DNA from: a virus | Length of the DNA: 64,000 nt | IMG/VR virus record: IMGVR_UViG_3300035695_000002 | Location: 56,725 to 120,724 of that record | Direction: 5' to 3' (one strand) | In this document: positions 1 to 64,000 of the stretch, piece after piece | Layout of the letters: each line of letters begins with the position of its first letter | Position numbering within the stretch: the first letter of the stretch is position 1 | Translations under genes and position numbers: made by a program | Notes under the pieces: model-generated | What the model was told of the DNA's origin: nothing | What the model saw: only the letters and a program-made list of their open reading frames with translations | Database searches by the model: none

Positions 1-1169
1 GCTATAATAGCAGGATTAATATCTAAATATGTGATAGATCCATTTGATCCACCTGTTTGATTTATTGCGGTTGTTATTGATACAGCAGTAAATGCTGCAG
101 TACCAGAAGCAGGGCTAAAAAATCCAGCGAAAGATGAACCTGTGATTGCTCCAGAAGTTGGAGTTACTGTATTTCCTGGGTTAATAGTAATACCGATCCC
201 ACTAGTAGCATTCCATGTACTGGGTTGATTAATAATAAACCCTGTATTTACTTGTATTTGATTTGCTACAGCGCTAGATCCGTTTAGAGTTATACCCCCA
301 ACATTACCTAATCCGGCAGCATCATTTATTTTTAATCCGTGAGCTTGAGTTAGTAATATTGCTCCATCTGATGCCAGTGTCAATCCTCCATTTGTAGAAC
401 TACCAGCAACCTTAGATTGAAATATTAAATTAGTAGTAGGGTTTGCAGATCCTTGAACCGGAAGATTATAAATTTGCCATAATGTTTGAACACTTGCTGT
501 TCCTGTTGTTTTCCACCCCTGACCCTCAAATGTTATTATAGGAGAAATCTGTTGAGCACCTGCTGCTGCTGCTGTGGAATTTGAAAACCATAAGCCAGCA
601 CCATCTACTACAGTAGTTCCTAAAGAAGCAAAGGAATATTTTATAATATTAGTTGTTGTACCTACTATTGTATTTGGTCCAGATAATGTTCCTCCAGAAG
701 CTAAAAGCCAAGAAAGTCCTGTAGATTGTTTACCATTAAATGTATTCCAATCGGCAGAGGATAAATATCCATTAGTTGATGTAGTAGCTTGAATAACTTG
801 AATAGTAGTATTTGCTAATAAAGTACTAGATCCTGTTATAGTAAGAACTGCTGAAGTAGCCTCTGTCAAATTACCAGCAGCAGTGTATGAAGGAGCAGCA
901 GATCCTCCTGTATTATTACCAAACCATGTGTGTGCTCCAGCATTAGACAATGAGAAAGATAGAGATGGAGTAGTGGTGGGAGTGCCTACAGAAGTAGTAA
1001 ATAAAGGAGATAGATTTCCACTAGAAAAAGAAGAAACTGTACCTCCTCCACCACCACCTGATATATTAGAAGCTACTTGTGTCAACCTTTCCATCTGTTT
1101 AGAGATGAAAGATAACCAATATTCTTCTGGTGCTGATTCTGCTCCTATTTGTCTATTAGGTACGGACAT
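1..1169 (-). CDS. Tail/head fibre-like protein, 5' part (runs off the left edge)
   Basis: Read by hand: ATG at 1169, MSVPNRQIGAESAPEEYWLSFISKQMERL...GGGGGTVSS...GYLSSADWNTFNGKQ. Gly/Ser/Thr-rich fibre composition. Absent from the ORF track because it has no stop in the window. Confidence 0.75.
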   Translation of the reverse strand, partial: MSVPNRQIGAESAPEEYWLSFISKQMERLTQVASNISGGGGGGTVSSFSSGNLSPLFTTSVGTPTTTPSLSFSLSNAGAHTWFGNNTGGSAAPSYTAAGNLTEATSAVLTITGSSTLLANTTIQVIQATTSTNGYLSSADWNTFNGKQSTGLSWLLASGGTLSGPNTIVGTTTNIIKYSFASLGTTVVDGAGLWFSNSTAAAAGAQQISPIITFEGQGWKTTGTASVQTLWQIYNLPVQGSANPTTNLIFQSKVAGSSTNGGLTLASDGAILLTQAHGLKINDAAGLGNVGGITLNGSSAVANQIQVNTGFIINQPSTWNATSGIGITINPGNTVTPTSGAITGSSFAGFFSPASGTAAFTAVSITTAINQTGGSNGSITYLDINPAII

Positions 1170-5120: not shown

Positions 5121-5151
5121 CAAAAGTATGACTAAAAAAGCAAATTTCCAA
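5121..5151 (-). promoter_or_regulatory. Bacteroidota housekeeping-sigma-type promoter
   Basis: Minus-strand TACTTTTG (-7 element TAnnTTTG) with TTGG about 19 nt upstream. Confidence 0.55.
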
Positions 5152-5198
5152 GGATTTACTTGGAAATTAATGCTATAGAGAAATTGAATTATATGGAA

Positions 5199-5705
5199 TT
5201 AAACTAATCCATCCCAAGTGGGATCTGTGGATTTAACTATTGAAAATTTATCTAAATTTGGGAGATATTGCCAATGCCATCTCTCTGATAGTACTGTTCT
5301 TACAAAACCGTAAGTTTTAGCATTATGAAACATCCATTTATAGACATCTGGAGGAACATTGAAATCATAAGCATCTCCGTTTTGATGATTGGAATATCCA
5401 GGTTTAGCTGTTCTAGGACTAAATAGTCCATTATCTGCATTTATTAGATATGTCCTATCGTTTATTTTAGTCTTATCTATTACATTCCTTTGACGAAATC
5501 CATATTGCTCTTCCCAAGTTCTGAATCCTTCATTTAAATGGAGAGTGATATTGTCCTTTTTAGCACCGTTAATGATTGATTGTACAAAAGAAAGATAAGA
5601 ATTAACGACCTTTTTACCATCAATTAAGGAAATCCCCTCATATCTTAGGAGTTTTCCATTGTCATATAAGGCATATTCTCCTTTTCCGTTTTGAGATTCT
5701 ATCAT
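5199..5705 (-). CDS. Endolysin, M15 (VanY / D,D-carboxypeptidase-like) peptidase
   Basis: GFRTWEEQ...PGYSNHQNGDAYD...SERWHWQY zinc-peptidase motifs. Confidence 0.85.
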   Translation of the reverse strand: MIESQNGKGEYALYDNGKLLRYEGISLIDGKKVVNSYLSFVQSIINGAKKDNITLHLNEGFRTWEEQYGFRQRNVIDKTKINDRTYLINADNGLFSPRTAKPGYSNHQNGDAYDFNVPPDVYKWMFHNAKTYGFVRTVLSERWHWQYLPNLDKFSIVKSTDPTWDGLV

Positions 5706-50406: not shown

Positions 50407-50481
50407 TAGCGTTGTCTTGGATTCGAACCAAGGATTTCAAGCTTATGAGGCTTGCGAGATAGTCCACTTCTCTAACCCGCT
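50407..50481 (-). tRNA. tRNA-Met (CAT), isolated
   Basis: AGCGGGTTAGAGAAGTGG...CAAGC-CTCATAA-GCTTG...GGTTCGAATCC cloverleaf. Confidence 0.85.
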
Positions 50482-54551: not shown

Positions 54552-57155
54552 TTACTTCTTAGGTTTCTTGGAAGCTGCTTGTTTTTTAGCTTTTAAGTTT
54601 AATTTCGCTATTGTTAAGTCATTTTCCATCTTCTTAGTCTCTACACCAAGCTTCTTCTCCTCTAAGGCTTTCTGGTCAGCAGCCTGTTTATTCTTGGAAG
54701 CCATATCAGAAAGCTTTAAATTATAGTCTTTTAAAGCACTTTCTTGGTCATGTATAAGTCTGGAAGCTTCTAAAACATCAGGAATATTATTTTGGTTCAA
54801 GTCTTCAGACTCTACCTTTCCAAACCCTGTAGCTTGAATAATAGCAATTTTCTCTTTAGACTCTCTATCCAGTTGTTTTTGATAGTCATCATGAGCAACT
54901 TGCTTATCATGTTGCTCTGCTGCCTGTTGTAATTGAGCTTGAGAAATACCAGCTTGTTGCTCAATTTCCTGTTGTTTCTGTTGTAATTGTTGATTTTGGA
55001 ATTCTTCTTGTCTTTCTTTAAGAACCTTGAAAGATTTTTGCATCTGTCTAATACTGTCTGTAGAATACAATTCTACAATATCGTATAAAGAAGCCCCATT
55101 CTGCATAGCAGGTTGAGCCAACATTCTGATTTCTTTAAATAACTCTCTGTCTTCAGCTCTGTTAGTAGGGAACACTTTTAAGTCCCTAAGTTTCAAATCT
55201 GTACCATTTACCTGTACAAAGGCAGATTCTCCTTTATTGGTAATATAGGACAATGTAGATTGTGGTTTCTGAGACTCCACATACAGGGAAGCGTCCATTA
55301 TGGCCTGATATACTTGTCTTATTACATACTCATGGGCTACAAATACAGGCTCTGTTTGAGAATAAGACTGTGTGATGGCAGCATTAGTGCCTGTAGCAGA
55401 TTCTGAAGCTGATACTGTACCAAGTCTTTGTTTAGACATACCTATGAGTTCCCAACACTCGTTCTTCATTTGTACAGCTAAATTGTATCTAGCTTGTATT
55501 TCATTAGTTCTTGTTAGATCTATATTTCCAGCTACAGATTGATTGGTGACAGGACCTTTGGTATTTTCTGGACTATCGTCATCAAACATTATACCTCTAC
55601 GTCTAGCCTCTAATTCCCACATATCAATATCATCTTGAGCATCTCCATCCTTCACCCTAGGAACTCTTCTTAAACTAACCCTGGCTACATTACCAATTTC
55701 CTTCTTTAAAAGCTCAAACATCTGATTCATACAGACGTTATATATTACTTGGAAAGGTTTCATCATATCCACTAAGGACTTAGCCTCAGTATTCTTCACC
55801 TCATAGTTTATCCCTATAATAGGACAATAATCTAAGAGTTTGTAAGGCTTAATATGATAGATGTCTGGACCAATTTTAACACCTTGATACCATTGATTCA
55901 CCCATCCCCATTCTAGTGATATTTGTGTGGGAATTGTCTTGTTTTTATAGTTTTCGTCTACGAGAATAGATTGTTCGTTCCCTAATTCATCCTCATATAT
56001 AACCTTTCCTATCTTTCTTTTACTAATCCAATAAGCCCTAACTACTACATATTTATATCCGAATGAAGAAACATTAGATGTAAGTCCTAGGAAATCCTTT
56101 AAACTATCATTATTTTCCTTCATATCACTTTCTATCATCATTCTTTCTTCAAGAATAAGAGGATCAAAAGTGTCATATTTTATGGAATCTATACCTGGAG
56201 CCACACTAGAATTACCCAAATTAGACTCTCTTACATTAATAAGACCATAATCTTGAAGAGAAGATCTAAGGTGATCTATTTCATCTTTGGTAATATCTGG
56301 GAAGGTTTCTATGATTTCAGAGATTTCCATTACATGAACACCTCCAGCAGCATAAGCTCCTCTTGCTCTACCACTAGGATCTGATGTATATTTCCTATCA
56401 GGAGTGGAAAGAAACCATGTATTCTTGGGATTGAACACTTCTATATTAAACCCTGTTTTTGAGTTATCCTCATATATATGGAAATATTCCCTAGCAGAAA
56501 TACACATATCCCTATATCCATCTTCACTTAATTCCTTTATATTGAAGTCTGCTTTAGAACATGTTAATATATGATTTCCCCACTTTTCAGCAGTGGAGGT
56601 GTAACTGTCTAGTTCATCTTTTACATCATCTAAGGTCATTTGTTGAAGTTGATCATCATCAACTTCCTGTCCTTCCATAGCCAGTTTTTCTTCTATTCTT
56701 TGTTTGGCTTGTGCCACCACAAATTGCTGCAATATCTGGGTTTTAAACTCTAATTCTTCAGCTTTACTATCATCATCGAAAGCTTTTACTTTATATCCAT
56801 CTGGTCTTTTAGAGAGTTCTCCAACTAGTTCATTAATAGGAGTAGTGAGAATGGAATAGTGTTTTACGTAAGCAGGGAGGTCTAAATCTCTAGTAAGAGT
56901 TTCTGTGAAACTGCTCACTTCTGGAGTTTCATAGAAATCCTCATGTCTAAGTATACCTTTTACTAAATCGTAGTTTTTAACAAAGGTGTCCCTGTTTTTC
57001 TTATATTCTACATATGCCTTATTAGCAAAGTAGTCCATAGTGTTCTTTATCCAACTATCGTCCTTCTTCTCCTCTTCAGTTTTAAACTGATCAGGGAAGA
57101 TGTTCAGATAGGCATATCTGATTGTAGCATCCTTTGTATATCTAATAATCGCCAT
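54552..57155 (-). CDS. Portal protein (867 aa)
   Basis: Follows TerL; SLVDMMKPFQVIYN and IGMSKQRLG motifs; Gln-rich coiled-coil C terminus. Confidence 0.85.
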   Translation of the reverse strand: MAIIRYTKDATIRYAYLNIFPDQFKTEEEKKDDSWIKNTMDYFANKAYVEYKKNRDTFVKNYDLVKGILRHEDFYETPEVSSFTETLTRDLDLPAYVKHYSILTTPINELVGELSKRPDGYKVKAFDDDSKAEELEFKTQILQQFVVAQAKQRIEEKLAMEGQEVDDDQLQQMTLDDVKDELDSYTSTAEKWGNHILTCSKADFNIKELSEDGYRDMCISAREYFHIYEDNSKTGFNIEVFNPKNTWFLSTPDRKYTSDPSGRARGAYAAGGVHVMEISEIIETFPDITKDEIDHLRSSLQDYGLINVRESNLGNSSVAPGIDSIKYDTFDPLILEERMMIESDMKENNDSLKDFLGLTSNVSSFGYKYVVVRAYWISKRKIGKVIYEDELGNEQSILVDENYKNKTIPTQISLEWGWVNQWYQGVKIGPDIYHIKPYKLLDYCPIIGINYEVKNTEAKSLVDMMKPFQVIYNVCMNQMFELLKKEIGNVARVSLRRVPRVKDGDAQDDIDMWELEARRRGIMFDDDSPENTKGPVTNQSVAGNIDLTRTNEIQARYNLAVQMKNECWELIGMSKQRLGTVSASESATGTNAAITQSYSQTEPVFVAHEYVIRQVYQAIMDASLYVESQKPQSTLSYITNKGESAFVQVNGTDLKLRDLKVFPTNRAEDRELFKEIRMLAQPAMQNGASLYDIVELYSTDSIRQMQKSFKVLKERQEEFQNQQLQQKQQEIEQQAGISQAQLQQAAEQHDKQVAHDDYQKQLDRESKEKIAIIQATGFGKVESEDLNQNNIPDVLEASRLIHDQESALKDYNLKLSDMASKNKQAADQKALEEKKLGVETKKMENDLTIAKLNLKAKKQAASKKPKK

Positions 57156-59830: not shown

Positions 59831-60118
59831 CTATAAAATTAAATCGTTTATATCTTTGTCTGTTAGTTTGAATGTCACTCTAGGAGCTGGTTTGGAAATA
59901 ATTTCTTCCTCTTCCTCTTGTACAAATCCTGTTTCAAATGTCTCCTTATATTCTTCATCCATATATGATTTACAGAAAGAGAAGCATATTTCATCCTGCT
60001 CATCTCCTTGTTTCCCAGAAATGTCAACATAATCCACACCCTTGTCATAAAGCATTGTTAATGTCTCTATCATAGACATCACATTTATCATTCTAAATTC
60101 ATGCTTTTGCTCTTCCAT
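59831..60118 (-). CDS. Hypothetical acidic protein (95 aa)
   Basis: ORF track and operon packing. Confidence 0.7.
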   Translation of the reverse strand: MEEQKHEFRMINVMSMIETLTMLYDKGVDYVDISGKQGDEQDEICFSFCKSYMDEEYKETFETGFVQEEEEEIISKPAPRVTFKLTDKDINDLIL

Positions 60119-60121
60119 ATA

Positions 60122-60445
60122 TCACTTGTTTAGTTTGTTATTTAATAGTTCTTCCTGTTGTGGTGTAGAAACTGCAAGCCATTTATTGGCTGGGCAACTA
60201 CAAGAAAGACATTTGGTTTTCTTTTGTAAAGGACATCCACACCCTTGAAATCCGTCTATTTTAACATGCTTATTACAGCACGGAGCTGTCAAAGGTAGAG
60301 CGCACCCTTCTCCTTTTTCATCATAAGCTATACAGGTTTTACATATAGCTAGTCTGTCTTCACTAGTTTGATTAATTAGTTCTCTTAGTTTTTCCGAAGG
60401 AAGAATGTCATTTTTCCACCCTTCAAATATCTCACTCCACTTCAT
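60122..60445 (-). CDS. Cys-rich zinc-binding protein (107 aa)
   Basis: RLAICKTC...CC...GCGCPLQKKTKCLSCSCPANKW. Confidence 0.7.
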   Translation of the reverse strand: MKWSEIFEGWKNDILPSEKLRELINQTSEDRLAICKTCIAYDEKGEGCALPLTAPCCNKHVKIDGFQGCGCPLQKKTKCLSCSCPANKWLAVSTPQQEELLNNKLNK

Positions 60446-60791
60446 TTAGTTTCAACTTGGTTTTTAATACTTCTATATCCTTTAACGTATTATTTAGTTT
60501 GTTTGTATAGGATTGCCTTTTCTGCTCTGTTAGAGACATGTCTTTAGACAGAGTTTCAAAGAATATCTTTTTAGAATATGCCTTTTCTAGCTTCCTTGTA
60601 GCTGCTTTGGTTTTAAATACAAACTTCCCAAACCCTGAAAGCTCCACACTATAGTTGTTTTTCAAAGCCTCATTGGCTTTCTCAAACTGATGAGACACAA
60701 TAGCATCTATTGTAGCTAAAGGTGTGTTGGTCTTTATACTCAACATCCTACATAAATAGTCCTTGTCGGACATCGAAATAGGCTTATCCAT
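60432..60791 (-). CDS. HU/IHF-like DNA-binding protein (probable start MDKPIS)
   Basis: ALKNNYSVELSGFGKF HU-like signature. Confidence 0.65.
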   Translation of the reverse strand: MDKPISMSDKDYLCRMLSIKTNTPLATIDAIVSHQFEKANEALKNNYSVELSGFGKFVFKTKAATRKLEKAYSKKIFFETLSKDMSLTEQKRQSYTNKLNNTLKDIEVLKTKLKLNEVE

Positions 60792-61143
60792 GTAGGATGG
60801 AGATTTGTAACACAACATCCTTATCAAAATCTAGGAGAAATTGAGGATTCACCTTTATCTTTCCACTTTCCTTTACAAGGATGTTCACCTTCTTAAGCTT
60901 AGAAATGATGTTATTAATTGTAGGGGAAGATGACTTATAGAGGGAACAAAACTCTTCTCTATTGGTAGAATATGATATATTCCCTTTAATAGCTGTAAAG
61001 GCTATTAATTGTATCTCCCTTTCTGTCAATTTTGTATTACTAATAGCCGACAATAAACTGTAATATCTCTGGGCTATTGATAAACTATCCTTCTCTGAAA
61101 GCTTAATTTTCTGTAAAAGTGTTTTTCTATCCTTGGTTTCCAT
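60784..61143 (-). CDS. Winged-helix-like DNA-binding protein (probable start METKDRK)
   Basis: LTEREIQL...SSPTINNIISKLKKVNILVK...KVNP. Confidence 0.6.
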   Translation of the reverse strand: METKDRKTLLQKIKLSEKDSLSIAQRYYSLLSAISNTKLTEREIQLIAFTAIKGNISYSTNREEFCSLYKSSSPTINNIISKLKKVNILVKESGKIKVNPQFLLDFDKDVVLQISILHG

Positions 61144-61157
61144 ACGTAATTCTAATA

Positions 61158-61188
61158 CAAATGTAGGAGGAATTATTCTAACTAACAA
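61158..61188 (-). promoter_or_regulatory. Bacteroidota-type promoter for the packaging/head operon
   Basis: TTG-N20-TACATTTG upstream of the ATG at 61143. Confidence 0.65.
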
Positions 61189-61227
61189 GAATAATTATAA
61201 ATAAATGCCATATTATGTCAAGAATTC

Positions 61228-61332
61228 CTATTTGAATAACTCAGCTATTGTATTTATTACCACTGCTGCTATAAGGAATACTATCCTATACATGACCAAT
61301 CCTATCATTATTACTATAATTGCTCCTACCAT
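61228..61332 (-). CDS. 34-aa hydrophobic membrane peptide missed by the ORF track
   Basis: MVGAIIVIMIGLVMYRIVFLIAAVVINTIAELFK*, directly downstream of tRNA-Cys. Confidence 0.5.
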   Translation of the reverse strand: MVGAIIVIMIGLVMYRIVFLIAAVVINTIAELFK

Positions 61333-61347
61333 ATTGTTTAAATTTAG

Positions 61348-61418
61348 AATCAGGAGTGAGGTTCGAACTCACGTAATAGGTTTTGCAGACCTATGTTTAA
61401 CCACTCAACCATCCTGAT
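61348..61418 (-). tRNA. tRNA-Cys (GCA)
   Basis: Anticodon arm TAGGT-CTGCAAA-ACCTA; T-loop TTCGAAC. Confidence 0.9.
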
Positions 61419-61579
61419 ATTGCTTATCTGGAATTTCAAAGCCCTATATATTCCCAAGACCCTGCCACCCATCCCCAAAGTTACTGCCTTTTATGGGAGG
61501 ATTGCAAATAACATTCTAAGTTATTTTCTAACTATTTGATAATGAGGAGGAATAATTTCAAGTGAACACTTGACAAAAG

Positions 61580-61651
61580 TGCAGTAAGTGAGACTTGAAC
61601 TCACAGCCCTTGGTTTGGAAGACCAATGCTCTACCTTGGAGCTATTACTGC
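61580..61651 (-). tRNA. tRNA-Gly (TCC)
   Basis: TTGGT-CTTCCAA-ACCAA. Confidence 0.9.
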
Positions 61652-61656
61652 ATATG

Positions 61657-61727
61657 TACCCAATGATGGAATCAAACCACCGCTACATGGATGTAAACCA
61701 AGTGCGCTATCATTACGCCAATTGGGC
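61657..61727 (-). tRNA. tRNA-Val (TAC)
   Basis: CTTGG-TTTACAT-CCATG. Confidence 0.85.
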
Positions 61728-61731
61728 ATTG

Positions 61732-61804
61732 TGGAACCATCTAGTAACGATCTAGAATTTCTCCCTCTTCAGGGGAGCACATATACCATATATGTTATAG
61801 TTCC
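61732..61804 (-). tRNA. tRNA-Phe (GAA), atypical T-loop
   Basis: CTCCC-CTGAAGA-GGGAG; T-loop ATCGTTA. Confidence 0.85.
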
Positions 61805-61863
61805 TGATATGGAGCCAAGGGGCAGTGCTCCCACTGTAAGTTCCCTTTCAACTTGGCATTTAG

Positions 61864-61934
61864 ATGCGAAGAGGGGAGTCGAACCCCTACGGTGAGGATA
61901 TGAGCCTCATGATCTACCATTAATCTACCTCGCA
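61864..61934 (-). tRNA. tRNA-Met (CAT), initiator-like
   Basis: TGCGAGG acceptor stem; TGAGG-CTCATAT-CCTCA. Confidence 0.85.
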
Positions 61935-61940
61935 ATATTG

Positions 61941-62013
61941 TTGTGATATTAGGAATCGAACCTAAAACCTCCACCTTATCAGAGTGTTGCGCTGCCAGTT
62001 GCGCCATATCACA
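61941..62013 (-). tRNA. tRNA-Ile (GAT)
   Basis: CACT-CTGATAA-GGTG. Confidence 0.9.
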
Positions 62014-62018
62014 ATAAG

Positions 62019-62089
62019 TTCTGCCACAGGGAATCGAACCCTGGTCTGAAAGTTAAAAGCTTCCAGCTCTACCATTGAGCTATGACAGA
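62019..62089 (-). tRNA. tRNA-Lys (TTT)
   Basis: GGAAG-CTTTTAA-CTTTC. Confidence 0.9.
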
Positions 62090-62166
62090 ATAAATCTTGT
62101 CATAGTCTTTCTTATCTGTTTCCATAATATTTTAACTGAGTGACATCAATGTCCTTCAGTTGATAG

Positions 62167-62238
62167 TTGACCCTAGCAGTACCGATCTGCTGACCATCTC
62201 ATTATGAGTGAGGTGCTCCACCATTGAGCTAAGGGTCG
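62167..62238 (-). tRNA. tRNA with CAT anticodon, probably Ile2 (lysidine, reads ATA); Met not excluded
   Basis: GACCCTTAGCTCAATGG...CTCA-CTCATAA-TGAG resembles bacterial Ile2; T-loop ATCGGTA. Confidence 0.75.
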
Positions 62239-62241
62239 ATG

Positions 62242-62313
62242 TAGTCCTACTGAGATTCGAACTCAGACCAAAAGATTAGAAGTCTCTTATTCTTCCAATT
62301 AAACTATAGAACC
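62242..62313 (-). tRNA. tRNA-Arg (TCT)
   Basis: AGAGA-CTTCTAA-TCTTT. Confidence 0.9.
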
Positions 62314-62350
62314 TTGTTCTACAGTTGTCTCCTTATGTTTACTTTCATAG

Positions 62351-62424
62351 ATCCCTAGGTCAGAGTTGAACTGACAGCCTCCAGTTTACAAAACTATTGC
62401 TCCACCAATTGAGCTACGTAGGGA
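62351..62424 (-). tRNA. tRNA-Thr (TGT)
   Basis: TAGT-TTTGTAA-ACTG; irregular acceptor stem. Confidence 0.85.
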
Positions 62425-62430
62425 ATATTG

Positions 62431-62499
62431 CACGCCCCCATAGAATCGAACTATGTCCTACGGTTTTGGAGACCGTCTGGCTACCTTAGCCTGAAGCAT
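62431..62499 (-). tRNA. tRNA-Trp (CCA)
   Basis: ACGGT-CTCCAAA-ACCGT. Confidence 0.85.
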
Positions 62500-62506
62500 G
62501 TGTATG

Positions 62507-62577
62507 AGGGAAGTGATAGAATCGAACTACCATATAGTGATTAACAGTCACTTGTTCTGCCATTGAACTAACAACCC
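62507..62577 (-). tRNA. tRNA-Asn (GTT)
   Basis: AGTGA-CTGTTAA-TCACT. Confidence 0.9.
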
Positions 62578-62583
62578 TTTAAG

Positions 62584-62656
62584 CAGTCTTGAAGGGATTT
62601 GAACCCTCTCCGTACCCATAGACAGTGGGACATCTTAACCATTTGACCTCAAGACT
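62584..62656 (-). tRNA. tRNA-Asp (GTC)
   Basis: CCCA-CTGTCTA-TGGG. Confidence 0.88.
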
Positions 62657-62659
62657 ATG

Positions 62660-62733
62660 TGGAAAGGTTGGGGCTTCGAACCCCAGACTCCTGAATGCAA
62701 ATCAGGTGTGATAGCCAGCTTCACCAAACCCCC
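62660..62733 (-). tRNA. tRNA-Ala (TGC)
   Basis: CCTGA-TTTGCAT-TCAGG. Confidence 0.88.
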
Positions 62734-62735
62734 AT

Positions 62736-62767
62736 AAAACAAAAAAGACTCCTTTTTGGGGAGCCTT
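62736..62767 (-). terminator. Attenuator-type intrinsic terminator directly upstream of tRNA block B
   Basis: AAGGCTCC-CCAAAAA-GGAGTCTT-TTTTGTTTT, ending 2-3 nt before tRNA-Ala. Confidence 0.85.
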
Positions 62768-62790
62768 ATTAACCTATTAGGTTATATCTT

Positions 62791-62877
62791 TTATTGGCTC
62801 CAACAATACACTCCCACCTTACCACAATCTCTTGTCGCAAACATGGTGAATATAATATTAAACCAATTCCTTTTCAT
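62791..62877 (-). CDS. Leader peptide B (28 aa, MKRNWFNIIFTMFATRDCGKVGVYCWSQ)
   Basis: Translated by hand. Codons match the 14 downstream tRNAs. The 3' end carries GGAGCC, complementary to the terminator 5' arm GGCTCC. Confidence 0.85.
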   Translation of the reverse strand: MKRNWFNIIFTMFATRDCGKVGVYCWSQ

Positions 62878-62898
62878 ATTATTCTATTTAAACTTCTG

Positions 62899-62971
62899 TA
62901 CTCCCAAGGGGCTATGATCCCCTGTTTTAACATTGAAAGTGTTATGTCCTAGCCAATTAGACGATGGGAGC
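62899..62971 (-). tRNA. tRNA-Glu (TTC), atypical T-loop
   Basis: TAACA-CTTTCAA-TGTTA; T-loop ATCATAG. Confidence 0.85.
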
Positions 62972-63019
62972 ATATTGCTCCTCACTCTCTATTTCACTAT
63001 TTTGGACTATGTCTTTCAT
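62957..63019 (-). CDS. Leader peptide E (20 aa, MKDIVQNSEIESEEQYAPIV), reading into tRNA-Glu
   Basis: Translated by hand. Four Glu codons in a six-codon stretch; the stop codon lies inside the tRNA-Glu D arm. Confidence 0.65.
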   Translation of the reverse strand: MKDIVQNSEIESEEQYAPIV

Positions 63020-63026
63020 GGGAATA

Positions 63027-63058
63027 CAAACCTAGTAAATAAAATACATAATTCCTAA
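63027..63058 (-). promoter_or_regulatory. Internal Bacteroidota-type promoter for leader E, tRNA-Glu and leader B
   Basis: TAGGTTTG (-7 element) 7 nt upstream of the ATG at 63019; TTAG at the -33 spacing. Confidence 0.6.
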
Positions 63059-63079
63059 TATTTATCAAGTTATTTTTAG

Positions 63080-63160
63080 TTGTATAGGCAGGAATCGAAC
63101 CTACATAGCCTAAGCGGTGGTTTTACAGACCCTTGATTTAGCCAATTTACCATCTATACA
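63080..63160 (-). tRNA. tRNA-Tyr (GTA)
   Basis: GGT-CTGTAAA-ACC; long variable arm. Confidence 0.88.
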
Positions 63161-63166
63161 ATATAG

Positions 63167-63251
63167 AAGAGAGTAGGAGATTTGAACTTCTGGAGCTGTT
63201 ACACCCTTTTGTTTAGCAAACAAACACAATAAGCCACTCTGTCAACTCTCT
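63167..63251 (-). tRNA. tRNA-Ser (GCT)
   Basis: TTTGT-TTGCTAA-ACAAA; long variable arm. Confidence 0.88.
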
Positions 63252-63255
63252 GTAG

Positions 63256-63342
63256 AAGAGGGTGTGGGATTCAAACCCACGGAACTTTTACATCCTCTGG
63301 TTTTCAAGACCAGTGCAATAAATCAGACTCTACCAACCCTCT
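63256..63342 (-). tRNA. tRNA-Ser (TGA)
   Basis: CTGGT-CTTGAAA-ACCAG; long variable arm. Confidence 0.9.
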
Positions 63343-63347
63343 TTATG

Positions 63348-63435
63348 TATCCCTAGAAGGCATCGAACCTTCACACTACTATTATTTCGCTTTAGATTTT
63401 AAGTCTAACGTGTCTGCCAATTTCACCATAGGGAC
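63348..63435 (-). tRNA. tRNA-Leu (TAA)
   Basis: TTAGA-CTTAAAA-TCTAA; long variable arm. Confidence 0.9.
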
Positions 63436-63438
63436 ATG

Positions 63439-63513
63439 TACTTCAGGTGGAATTCGAATCCACAAGCCCCTGATTCTAAATCAGAGAGGTTTACCATTTT
63501 CCTTCACTGAAGC
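63439..63513 (-). tRNA. tRNA-Leu (TAG), short variable loop
   Basis: TCTGA-TTTAGAA-TCAGG. Confidence 0.85.
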
Positions 63514-63519
63514 ATATAG

Positions 63520-63591
63520 TCTTTTCTTAAGGATTTGAACCTTAATTGCAGAGTTCGTAGCCCTGAGTCCTTCCATTTAAACGAAGAAAAG
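63520..63591 (-). tRNA. tRNA-Arg (ACG)
   Basis: CAGGG-CTACGAA-CTCTG. Confidence 0.9.
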
Positions 63592-63596
63592 AAATA

Positions 63597-63667
63597 GGTG
63601 TCTGATGGGAATTGACCCCACACATCTTTGATTCACAGTCAAAGGCTCTACATTAAGCTACAGACAC
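63597..63667 (-). tRNA. tRNA-His (GTG)
   Basis: TTTGA-CTGTGAA-TCAAA; C73 discriminator. Confidence 0.88.
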
Positions 63668-63669
63668 AG

Positions 63670-63741
63670 TTTTAATATTGGGATTCGAACCCAAACTACC
63701 AGATTCAAAATCCGAGGTGCTAACCGTTACACCATATTAAA
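63670..63741 (-). tRNA. tRNA-Gln (TTG)
   Basis: TCGGA-TTTTGAA-TCTGG. Confidence 0.9.
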
Positions 63742-63743
63742 AG

Positions 63744-63819
63744 TCTAGATGGCAGGATTTGAACCTGCGTAATCCTGCTTCCAAGGCAGGCTAGATAAAC
63801 CTAACTCCTATACATCTAG
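63744..63819 (-). tRNA. tRNA-Pro (TGG)
   Basis: CCTGC-CTTGGAA-GCAGG. Confidence 0.9.
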
Positions 63820-63852
63820 AAAATAAAAAACCCCTCTTTTTGGGAGGGGTCT
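63820..63852 (-). terminator. Attenuator-type intrinsic terminator directly upstream of tRNA block A
   Basis: GACCCCTC-CCAAAAA-GAGGGGTT-TTTTATTTT, abutting tRNA-Pro. Confidence 0.88.
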
Positions 63853-63875
63853 ATGCTTTAAAAAGTTGTTCTGAA

Positions 63876-63962
63876 TCAACTATAATCAAACACAAATATC
63901 CCCTCACCTCCTAGATAACTAGGGAGCGAATGCTGTTGTGAAGGGCGTAAGTATTGTTTCAT
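63876..63962 (-). CDS. Leader peptide A (28 aa, MKQYLRPSQQHSLPSYLGGEGIFVFDYS)
   Basis: Translated by hand. Codons 3-17 match the nine downstream tRNAs. Contains GAGGGG, complementary to the terminator arm CCCCTC. Confidence 0.85.
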   Translation of the reverse strand: MKQYLRPSQQHSLPSYLGGEGIFVFDYS

Positions 63963-63967
63963 AAAGG

Positions 63968-63999
63968 CAAATATATGTAAAAGGATTGACATTTCCAAA
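63968..63999 (-). promoter_or_regulatory. Bacteroidota-type promoter of the tRNA array (leaderless transcript predicted)
   Basis: TTTG-N20-TATATTTG, then CCTTT and the ATG of leader A. Confidence 0.8.
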
Positions 64000-64000
64000 T

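Follow-up and report, generated by a model that had tools for sequence, protein, structure and literature searches.

The stretch of DNA examined here (the window, 64,000 nucleotides long, positions 56,725 to 120,724 of the IMG/VR record IMGVR_UViG_3300035695_000002) is the right part of a viral record of 120,724 bp, with 33% G+C and a terminal repeat of 127 bp. Its minus strand carries an array of 24 tRNA genes, 22 of them detected by ARAGORN and two, Trp-CCA and Tyr-GTA, falling below the Rfam cut-off. We focus on a short open reading frame (ORF) within this array, which we call leader B, and on the intrinsic terminator that separates it from the 14 tRNA genes downstream (block B). Judging from their sequence, the two quite probably form a ribosome-mediated leader-peptide transcription attenuator of the trp/his/ilv type that controls the 14 phage tRNA genes. 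The terminase of the virus is closest to those of Leptolyngbya phage Lbo-JY46 (40% identity) and Cellulophaga phages phi4:1 and phi17:2 (33%), with crAss-like, Flavobacterium and Bacteroides phages as more distant kin.

The array begins with another leader and terminator (leader A), followed by the genes for Pro, Gln, His, Arg-ACG, Leu-TAG, Leu-TAA, Ser-TGA, Ser-GCT and Tyr. Then comes a gap of 107 nt with a Glu-rich mini-ORF, the gene for tRNA-Glu and, 20 nt past it, leader B, which has an A-rich start devoid of a Shine-Dalgarno sequence. A hairpin of 15 nt, the terminator and 11 nt more lead into block B, where the order is Ala, Asp, Asn, Trp, Thr, Arg-TCT, CAT, Lys, Ile-GAT, CAT, Phe, Val, Gly and Cys, the two CAT genes being named by their anticodon. 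Within leader B we distinguish a sensing zone (codons 2-22), whose codons all fall in block-B boxes, and a tail (codons 23-28) that overlaps segment 2 of the RNA, the segments being numbered 1 to 4 as in classical attenuators. The features are as follows:

62898..62971, minus strand: tRNA-Glu, whose transcript bears leader B 20 nt downstream
62877..62791, minus strand: leader B ORF, 28 codons plus TAA, reading MKRNWFNIIFTMFATRDCGKVGVYCWSQ, 58 nt ahead of tRNA-Ala
62867..62793, minus strand: 1:2 hairpin of 31 pairs, with its 5' arm (segment 1) at 62867..62832 and its 3' arm (segment 2) at 62827..62793
62801..62796, minus strand: GGAGCC, the core of segment 2, ending 2 nt ahead of the stop TAA and complementary to the terminator 5' arm
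62784..62770, minus strand: small hairpin TAACCT-AAT-AGGTTA between the stop codon and segment 3, juxtaposing segments 2 and 3
62767..62735, minus strand: predicted intrinsic terminator, with a stem of 8 pairs at 62767..62745 (segments 3 and 4) and a T-run at 62744..62735
62765..62760, minus strand: GGCTCC in the terminator 5' arm, the partner of GGAGCC
62733..61347, minus strand: block B, 14 tRNA genes (ARAGORN, Rfam and ARAGORN at lowered threshold)
62499..62431, minus strand: tRNA-Trp-CCA, just under the Rfam cut-off, called by ARAGORN at lowered threshold
63159..63081, minus strand: tRNA-Tyr-GTA, just under the Rfam cut-off, called by ARAGORN at lowered threshold

A preliminary description of this locus had proposed a translated leader that switches a terminator. 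The codons that it listed are exactly those found in ORF 62877..62791, and GGAGCC, GGCTCC and the TAACCT-AAT-AGGTTA hairpin all lie on the minus strand where it had placed them. An independent promoter driving block B, which it had named as evidence that would speak against the proposal, has neither room nor a motif in the 11 nt between the terminator and tRNA-Ala.

Of the 61 sense codons, 28 fall to the tRNAs of block A (tRNA-Glu counted) and 33 to those of block B, the latter making up 64% of the codons in the phage's own usage (74 long ORFs). Codons 1-23 of leader B are an unbroken series of B-type codons, with 25 of the 28 being B-type overall, and all 14 block-B boxes are present, so that the earlier statement that codons 1-23 sample all 14 tRNAs holds in full. 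Its further remark that most of these boxes occur twice is correct for eight of them, which appear at least two times within codons 1-23, and wrong for the other six, which appear once. When random ORFs of 27 codons were simulated with the phage codon usage, the joint occurrence of all 13 non-Met B boxes and of 24 or more B codons among the 27 had P = 5e-5, and a B run of at least 22 codons had P = 1.6e-4; the chance of about 1e-6 given before, (33/61)^22, had assumed uniform codons and was some 40-fold too small, while the conclusion on codon matching stands. Coverage of the 14 boxes within a single unbroken in-block run, which in leader B extends over 22 codons, was reached by none of 100,000 simulated ORFs.

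Relatives were sought by terminase and then by leader-peptide scans among uncultured viral and metagenome contigs, yielding 11 distinct variants of leader B and a twelfth that differs only downstream. Across the variants, off-block codons amount to 3 of 231 in the sensing zone vs 36 of 66 in the six-codon tail, counts to be given less weight than their size suggests, the variants being related and hence not independent. That off-block codons should lie in or near the antiterminator segment had been noticed for the window, and their confinement mainly to the tail extends this to the relatives.

The coding signature of leader B is also clear. All 12 variants keep the ATG and the reading frame, with ORF lengths of 26-29 codons; indels come in multiples of three, and the sole internal one in the alignment measures 3 nt, that is, one codon. 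Compared with the window, synonymous and non-synonymous changes number 6:0 in L085, 5:0 in L088, 2:0 in L086 and 1:0 in L091 (L numbers denote individual relatives), the 6:0 case having by our own arithmetic a probability near 2.5e-5 if 13.3 of the 78 sites are taken as synonymous, and the proportion of synonymous changes (pS) exceeds that of non-synonymous ones (pN) in all 11 comparisons with the window. Mean column identity of the peptide is 87%, with 15 invariant positions (four variants), and searches of Pfam and PHROGs gave no match for the peptide. In L084 the C-terminal residues are altered, since the GGAGCC motif is read there in a different frame; the C-terminus of the leader is therefore conserved as RNA and not as peptide.

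The strongest test of the proposed design is, in our view, whether leader codons follow tRNA content, and the comparison of relatives points to such a co-variation. L092 has no tRNA-Val and no first CAT tRNA, and its sensing zone lacks Val and ATA codons; apart from a single stray Ser, the zone spells the 12 tRNAs present and no others. In L096 the second CAT tRNA is gone and M12 of the leader is now A. In L095, tRNA-Ala has its place ahead of tRNA-Pro in block A; leader B is there without an Ala codon, and leader A, which reads HRLPAYQHLSSL, has gained a GCG and shows all 10 decoders within 12 codons. Taken together, the codon is missing for four of the five absent tRNAs vs one of the 94 present ones (Fisher p = 7e-6).

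The first CAT gene deserves a separate comment, as it had been called an Ile2 tRNA in the preliminary description. Its slot is occupied in L086 (4631..4719) by an unrelated sequence in which ARAGORN at lowered threshold finds a tRNA-Ile with anticodon TAT, and in L090 (2065..2192) by a homologue of the L086 copy for which ARAGORN makes no call. Such a change would exchange one of the two modes of ATA decoding for the other. Since tRNA-Ile(UAU) replaces the first CAT tRNA, the slot would therefore be that of an ATA decoder, and the sensing zone of L092, which has no such slot, is without ATA; the Ile2 call thus gains support from three relatives.

Turning to RNA structure, codons 4-13 pair with codons 17-28 in the minimum free energy fold, with a z-score of -5.6 and none of 200 shuffles as stable. 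This is the hairpin at 62867..62793 listed above, and the earlier opinion that there was no clear 1:2 protector hairpin has to be abandoned. In the 12-sequence alignment 95.4% of the cells of this hairpin are paired and six pairs have changed on both sides, values that none of 500 shuffles reach and that compare with 36-51% for slid partners. In each of the 11 variants the fold comprises, in this order, a long hairpin, a small hairpin and the terminator. The small hairpin is found at the same place in every one of them with at least six unrelated stem sequences, according to our reading of the folds. As MAFFT left the small hairpin and the terminator out of register, formal pair counts refer to the 1:2 hairpin only, and the 2:3 and 3:4 pairings were tabulated sequence by sequence with a script, whose choice of small hairpin was wrong for L084. 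A terminator stem is present in 11 of 11 variants, the T-run being interrupted in L084 and L094 being cut by the contig end.

Complementarity between segment 2 and the terminator 5' arm extends over 6-9 bp in all 11 variants. The paired sequences are GGAGCC/GGCUCC in the window and GUUGGAGCC/GGCUCCAAC in four variants, with compensatory change in L094 (UGGGACC/GGUCCCA) and similarly in L096, GGGAC(C/U) facing GGUCCC(A) in the two. Segment 2 thus copies segment 4 and covaries with segment 3. Covariation in homologues had been suggested as a check of the design, and both the 1:2 hairpin and the pairing of segment 2 with the terminator arm display it.

Anatomy, codon matching, coding signature, structural covariation and the agreement between leader and tRNA content are all observed in silico, and from them we infer that the leader is translated, that its translation is coupled to transcription, which way the switch works and what its biological trigger is. 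Among sequenced RNA runs, none was found to contain 61300-64000 of the window. In the model that we favour, the RNA would arrive from upstream, either from a promoter-like site before tRNA-Glu, which is the likely source of leader B RNA to judge from its motif, or by read-through of block A. A ribosome would initiate on the A-rich start lacking a Shine-Dalgarno sequence and read the 28 codons. With fast decoding of every block-B codon, it would reach the tail or the stop and cover segment 2 (GGAGCC), the 3:4 terminator would form, and RNA polymerase would halt 11 nt ahead of tRNA-Ala. Should any of the 14 tRNAs be scarce or uncharged, the ribosome would stall within codons 2-22, occupying segment 1 and leaving segment 2 free to capture the emerging 5' arm of the terminator, so that read-through would follow and the entire block would be made. 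The net effect would be an OR-gated negative feedback on tRNA supply, with phage tRNAs made when the host pool is short or destroyed. Put briefly, the phage probably makes block-B tRNAs only when ribosomes read those codons slowly.

As a proxy for kinetics, we folded the transcript as far as the terminator loop, before segment 4 has emerged, with the part covered by the ribosome masked. In these folds segment 3 is mostly sequestered (typically 0.6-0.97) as long as the A site lies at codons 2-22, with dips at codons 16-18 in the window and L086 (0.32-0.49) and at codons 11-14 in L095 (0.36-0.48); the dip at codons 16-18 arises because the arms were allowed to pair around a ribosome placed in the loop, and we regard it as unphysical. 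Once the A site comes close to the final codons or the stop, segment 3 becomes freer, the minimum being 0.06-0.31 in 10 of the 11 variants; the exception is L096, in which sequestration falls only to 0.73. The earlier suggestion that a ribosome at the stop would cover GGAGCC and permit termination agrees with these modelled folds in the same 10 variants, and more generally the idea of a translated leader switching a terminator is supported, being in agreement with every in silico test run.

The design is not restricted to block B. The other leader of the window is:

63998..63828, minus strand: leader A unit, with an ORF of 28 codons at 63962..63876 and a terminator at 63852..63828

Codons 3-17 of leader A, a run of 15, cover all nine tRNAs from Pro to Tyr, which none of 100,000 simulated ORFs achieved, and its four segments read CCCUUCAC, GUGAGGGG, CCCCUC and GAGGGG. 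A promoter-like TTTG-20-TAtaTTTG lies only 5 nt ahead of the ATG at 63962, which suggests a leaderless mRNA. In the window and six relatives, all seven variants of leader A cover all 9 or 10 tRNAs, with the order of residues shuffled; leader A is missing in L084, which retains the terminator only, and in the 667 nt available of L088. Masked folds of leader A give a textbook profile in L095 and L096 (the scripted choice of terminator took the inner stem only for L092, and the numbers for L091 were excluded).

Two cultured phages show the same principle with other sequences. The array of Cellulophaga phage phi4:1 (NC_021788.1) is divided differently and has three leaders, each spelling its own block. 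The leader QRLHLQELEQP stands ahead of Pro, Glu, Gln, His, Leu, Leu and Arg (0 of 100,000 simulated ORFs), TKTGITVIDKTKGARA ahead of Ala, Lys, Ile, Gly, CAT, Asp, Thr, Val, Arg and CAT (39 of 100,000), and NYCTYNNSNWSFSY ahead of Tyr, Ser, Ser, Asn, Trp, Phe and a Cys-like tRNA (7 of 100,000). Of these, TKTGITVIDKTKGARA would require a GTG start and lies within the annotated gene gp075. Leptolyngbya phage Lbo-JY46, with yet another partition of its tRNAs, has the leader TRQHTQFWFPT ahead of Pro, Thr, Phe, Gln, His, Arg and Trp (0 of 100,000).

Several results weigh against this interpretation. The full-length RNA at equilibrium prefers the terminator at nearly every ribosome position in the four sequences folded in this way (window, L088, L094 and L084), the exception being the window with the ribosome at codons 10-12; any antitermination would thus need to be a kinetic effect, like that of trp. 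Segment 3 is sequestered even without a ribosome in 8 of 11 variants (0.62-0.85), the terminator arm being free only in the window, L086 and L096, and therefore the rule that no translation gives termination is not general. For most tRNAs the leader has one or two codons and no tandem runs, so that a low sensitivity to mild shortage is expected. Two relatives break the correspondence between codons and tRNAs, as L084 keeps the CAT tRNA of the ATA slot yet has no ATA codon, and L096 is without tRNA-Arg-TCT yet keeps AGA at codon 2. Among the cultured phages, the leaders of Lbo-JY46 before Leu-Leu and Lys-Cys fail the run statistic (89,046 and 32,139 of 100,000), and the small ORFs among the tRNAs of phage T5, which were looked at by inspection with no statistic, display no obvious matching; the design is thus not universal.

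Some of these results would be accommodated if leader B sensed translation with a different output, acting on the processing, folding or stability of the tRNA precursor or through a factor-dependent stop instead of a terminator/antiterminator switch. Equilibrium folds that favour the terminator almost irrespective of ribosome position speak for such an output, and the mini-ORFs of tRNA-Glu and tRNA-Lys (see below), which extend into the tRNA, pair with its 5' strand and lack a terminator, suggest that a control of the processing or folding type exists nearby in the same array. We nevertheless think such an output unlikely for leader B, in view of the canonical stem and T-run 11 nt ahead of the first tRNA and of a segment 2 that copies segment 4 and covaries with segment 3, as a choice between terminator and antiterminator predicts.

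It is much harder to account for the data with a small functional peptide that has nothing to do with tRNA sensing and is followed by an ordinary leaky terminator, the codon matching being a by-product. Conservation of the peptide and the scarcity of non-synonymous change could be read in this way, but leaders of different blocks and phages have no common sequence and yet each spells its own block, the codons follow moves and losses of tRNAs, off-block codons are confined to the tail, the C-terminus of L084 shifts frame with the GGAGCC motif kept, and no Pfam or PHROG family is matched, all of which makes a peptide of this kind very improbable. Hardly any more credible is a non-coding structured RNA (a processing signal, a spacer or a small RNA) in which the open frame is incidental to the hairpin. 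A very stable and covarying hairpin does dominate the region, but the purely synonymous changes of the close relatives, the ATG and frame kept in 12 of 12 variants with an internal indel of 3 nt, and the coverage of 14 of 14 boxes are the marks of a translated sequence. An attenuator that reads the decoding of block-B codons therefore remains the interpretation that we prefer.

Attenuators that respond to more than one amino acid are familiar from enterobacteria, where the ilvGMEDA leader senses Ile, Leu and Val and the thr leader Thr and Ile, along with trpL, hisL, leuL and pheL (PMC3082878). Leader B resembles them in its short leader ORF, in the regulatory codons located in segment 1, in the proposed sensing of several amino acids, in the alternative 1:2, 2:3 and 3:4 pairings with an intrinsic terminator, and in a stop codon so placed that a finishing ribosome would cover segment 2. 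It differs from them in that the regulated genes would be tRNA genes and not enzymes, and are phage-borne; in that 14 decoders are sampled once or twice, compared with their runs of codons for one to three amino acids; and in that the leader RNA would be cut from, or continuous with, a tRNA precursor. A terminator whose read-through depends on the tRNA pool, placed ahead of a gene for the translation machinery, is also found in the pheST (pheM) attenuator and in T-box riboswitches, both of which control aminoacyl-tRNA synthetase genes according to tRNA charging. However, pheM senses one amino acid and controls a synthetase, and the T-box binds uncharged tRNA directly without a ribosome. An Rfam search (cmscan, E up to 1) of 60000..64000 returned no T-box, giving only the tRNAs and weak chance matches, with no other family at cut-off.

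The nearest published case is that of the trn operon of Anabaena sp. PCC 7120, a long tRNA array induced under translational stress (PMC8421152, PMC10272220). It is likewise an accessory array of about two dozen tRNA genes that stays silent until translation is impaired. In contrast to leader B, its control is reported to act at the promoter, through the repressor TrcR on direct repeats, and the array is carried by a cellular plasmid; the terms attenuat-, leader peptide and terminator occur nowhere in PMC8421152. In open-licence PMC papers and bioRxiv we found no published account of leader-peptide attenuation of tRNA genes, and one may exist elsewhere. The class of mechanism is thus classical, and it is its use on tRNA genes for which no account was found.

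Phage tRNA arrays are usually seen as helpers in codon usage or as counter-measures to tRNA-cleaving defences. If our interpretation is true, leader B would be the first known case of an attenuator acting on tRNA genes and also the most multivalent attenuator, and the virus would gauge, one codon after another, how well its host can decode and answer with the matching tRNAs. With phi4:1 having a cultured host and the same design, the idea is directly testable. For annotation, it would provide a rule by which the leader reveals the content of the operon, and it would explain small 'hypothetical proteins' within phage tRNA arrays, such as gp075 of phi4:1. Such leaders could also become compact, programmable sensors of tRNA availability. 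The window contributes 11 leader B variants with events of tRNA gain, loss and move, and it also ties the design to two named cultured phages.

How widespread these arrays are can be approached from the terminase. We examined the best 80 of 456 confirmed terminase relatives in IMG/VR, and only two of these (L002 and L003) bear plus-strand tRNA genes in the fetched locus, the other 78 being set aside, because of which the array with its attenuators appears to be rare within the terminase group. In the cultured-phage collection, the search for near relatives by DNA gave matches of tRNA size only. Two array-bearing relatives, L086 and L090, have insertions of 280-620 nt between tRNAs.

Two single tRNAs of the window seem to have a device of their own. 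The Glu unit (63027..62957, minus strand) consists of a promoter-like TAGGTTTG followed by an ORF of 20 codons (63019..62957) that runs into tRNA-Glu and contains four Glu codons, with no terminator. Its GAGGAGC can pair with the 5' acceptor strand of tRNA-Glu and covaries (GAGGAAC/GUUCCU in L086), and an equivalent of the Glu-rich ORF was found in 11 of 11 variants. Inside block B, the Lys unit (62125..62069, minus strand) has a mini-ORF, METDKKDYDKIYSVIAQW, that runs into tRNA-Lys (62089..62018), and the stretch before the tRNA pairs with the tRNA-Lys 5' strand at -9.6 to -14.4 kcal/mol, and the changes seen there in L086, L096, L092 and L084 are compensatory; the unit was present in the eight variants examined. 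It may exert a translation-gated control of tRNA folding or processing. In both devices, the 3' part of a mini-ORF rich in cognate codons would pair with the 5' acceptor strand of the tRNA, and a ribosome stalled by a shortage of that tRNA would free it to fold and be processed. We propose, quite tentatively, that this phage lineage could have a complete, layered surveillance of the tRNA pool made of RNA and tiny ORFs only, with OR-gated attenuators before blocks A and B and a second device for Glu and Lys, replacing exactly the tRNAs that the host lacks or that a tRNA-cleaving defence has destroyed.

The promoters of the array are putative. They follow TT(T/A)G-17..22-TAnnTTTG, the Bacteroidota-type consensus, and this motif occurs at 19 distinct sites vs 12.6 +/- 3.2 in mononucleotide shuffles, a mild genome-wide enrichment. 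In the gap between tRNA-Gly and tRNA-Cys (61578..61419, minus strand) there is a TTTG-21-TAacTTTG-GGG-ATG with an ORF that runs through tRNA-Cys and has no Cys codon, which breaks the codon-matching rule. A perfect sigma-70-type TTGACA-16-TATAAT is located at 61221..61194 (minus strand), between tRNA-Cys and the first structural-arm protein gene, an odd finding if the host promoters are of the Bacteroidota type.

Some further observations concern individual genes. In phi4:1 (L097; 7241..7360 and 5131..5232), gp075 begins inside a promoter-like repeat and contains the second leader, gp076 overlaps a tRNA-Ser(TGA) called at lowered ARAGORN threshold, and of two features annotated as tRNA-Pseudo one is a tRNA-Asn(GTT) by ARAGORN and the other has a GCA (Cys) loop by eye with no clear ARAGORN call. 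In the window, a third tRNA with a CAT anticodon is found at 50408..50480 (minus strand), near a capsid gene and far from the array (43.8 bits with Rfam, no ARAGORN call), and a tRNA-Met(CAT) about 11 kb downstream of the array in L002 is possibly its counterpart.

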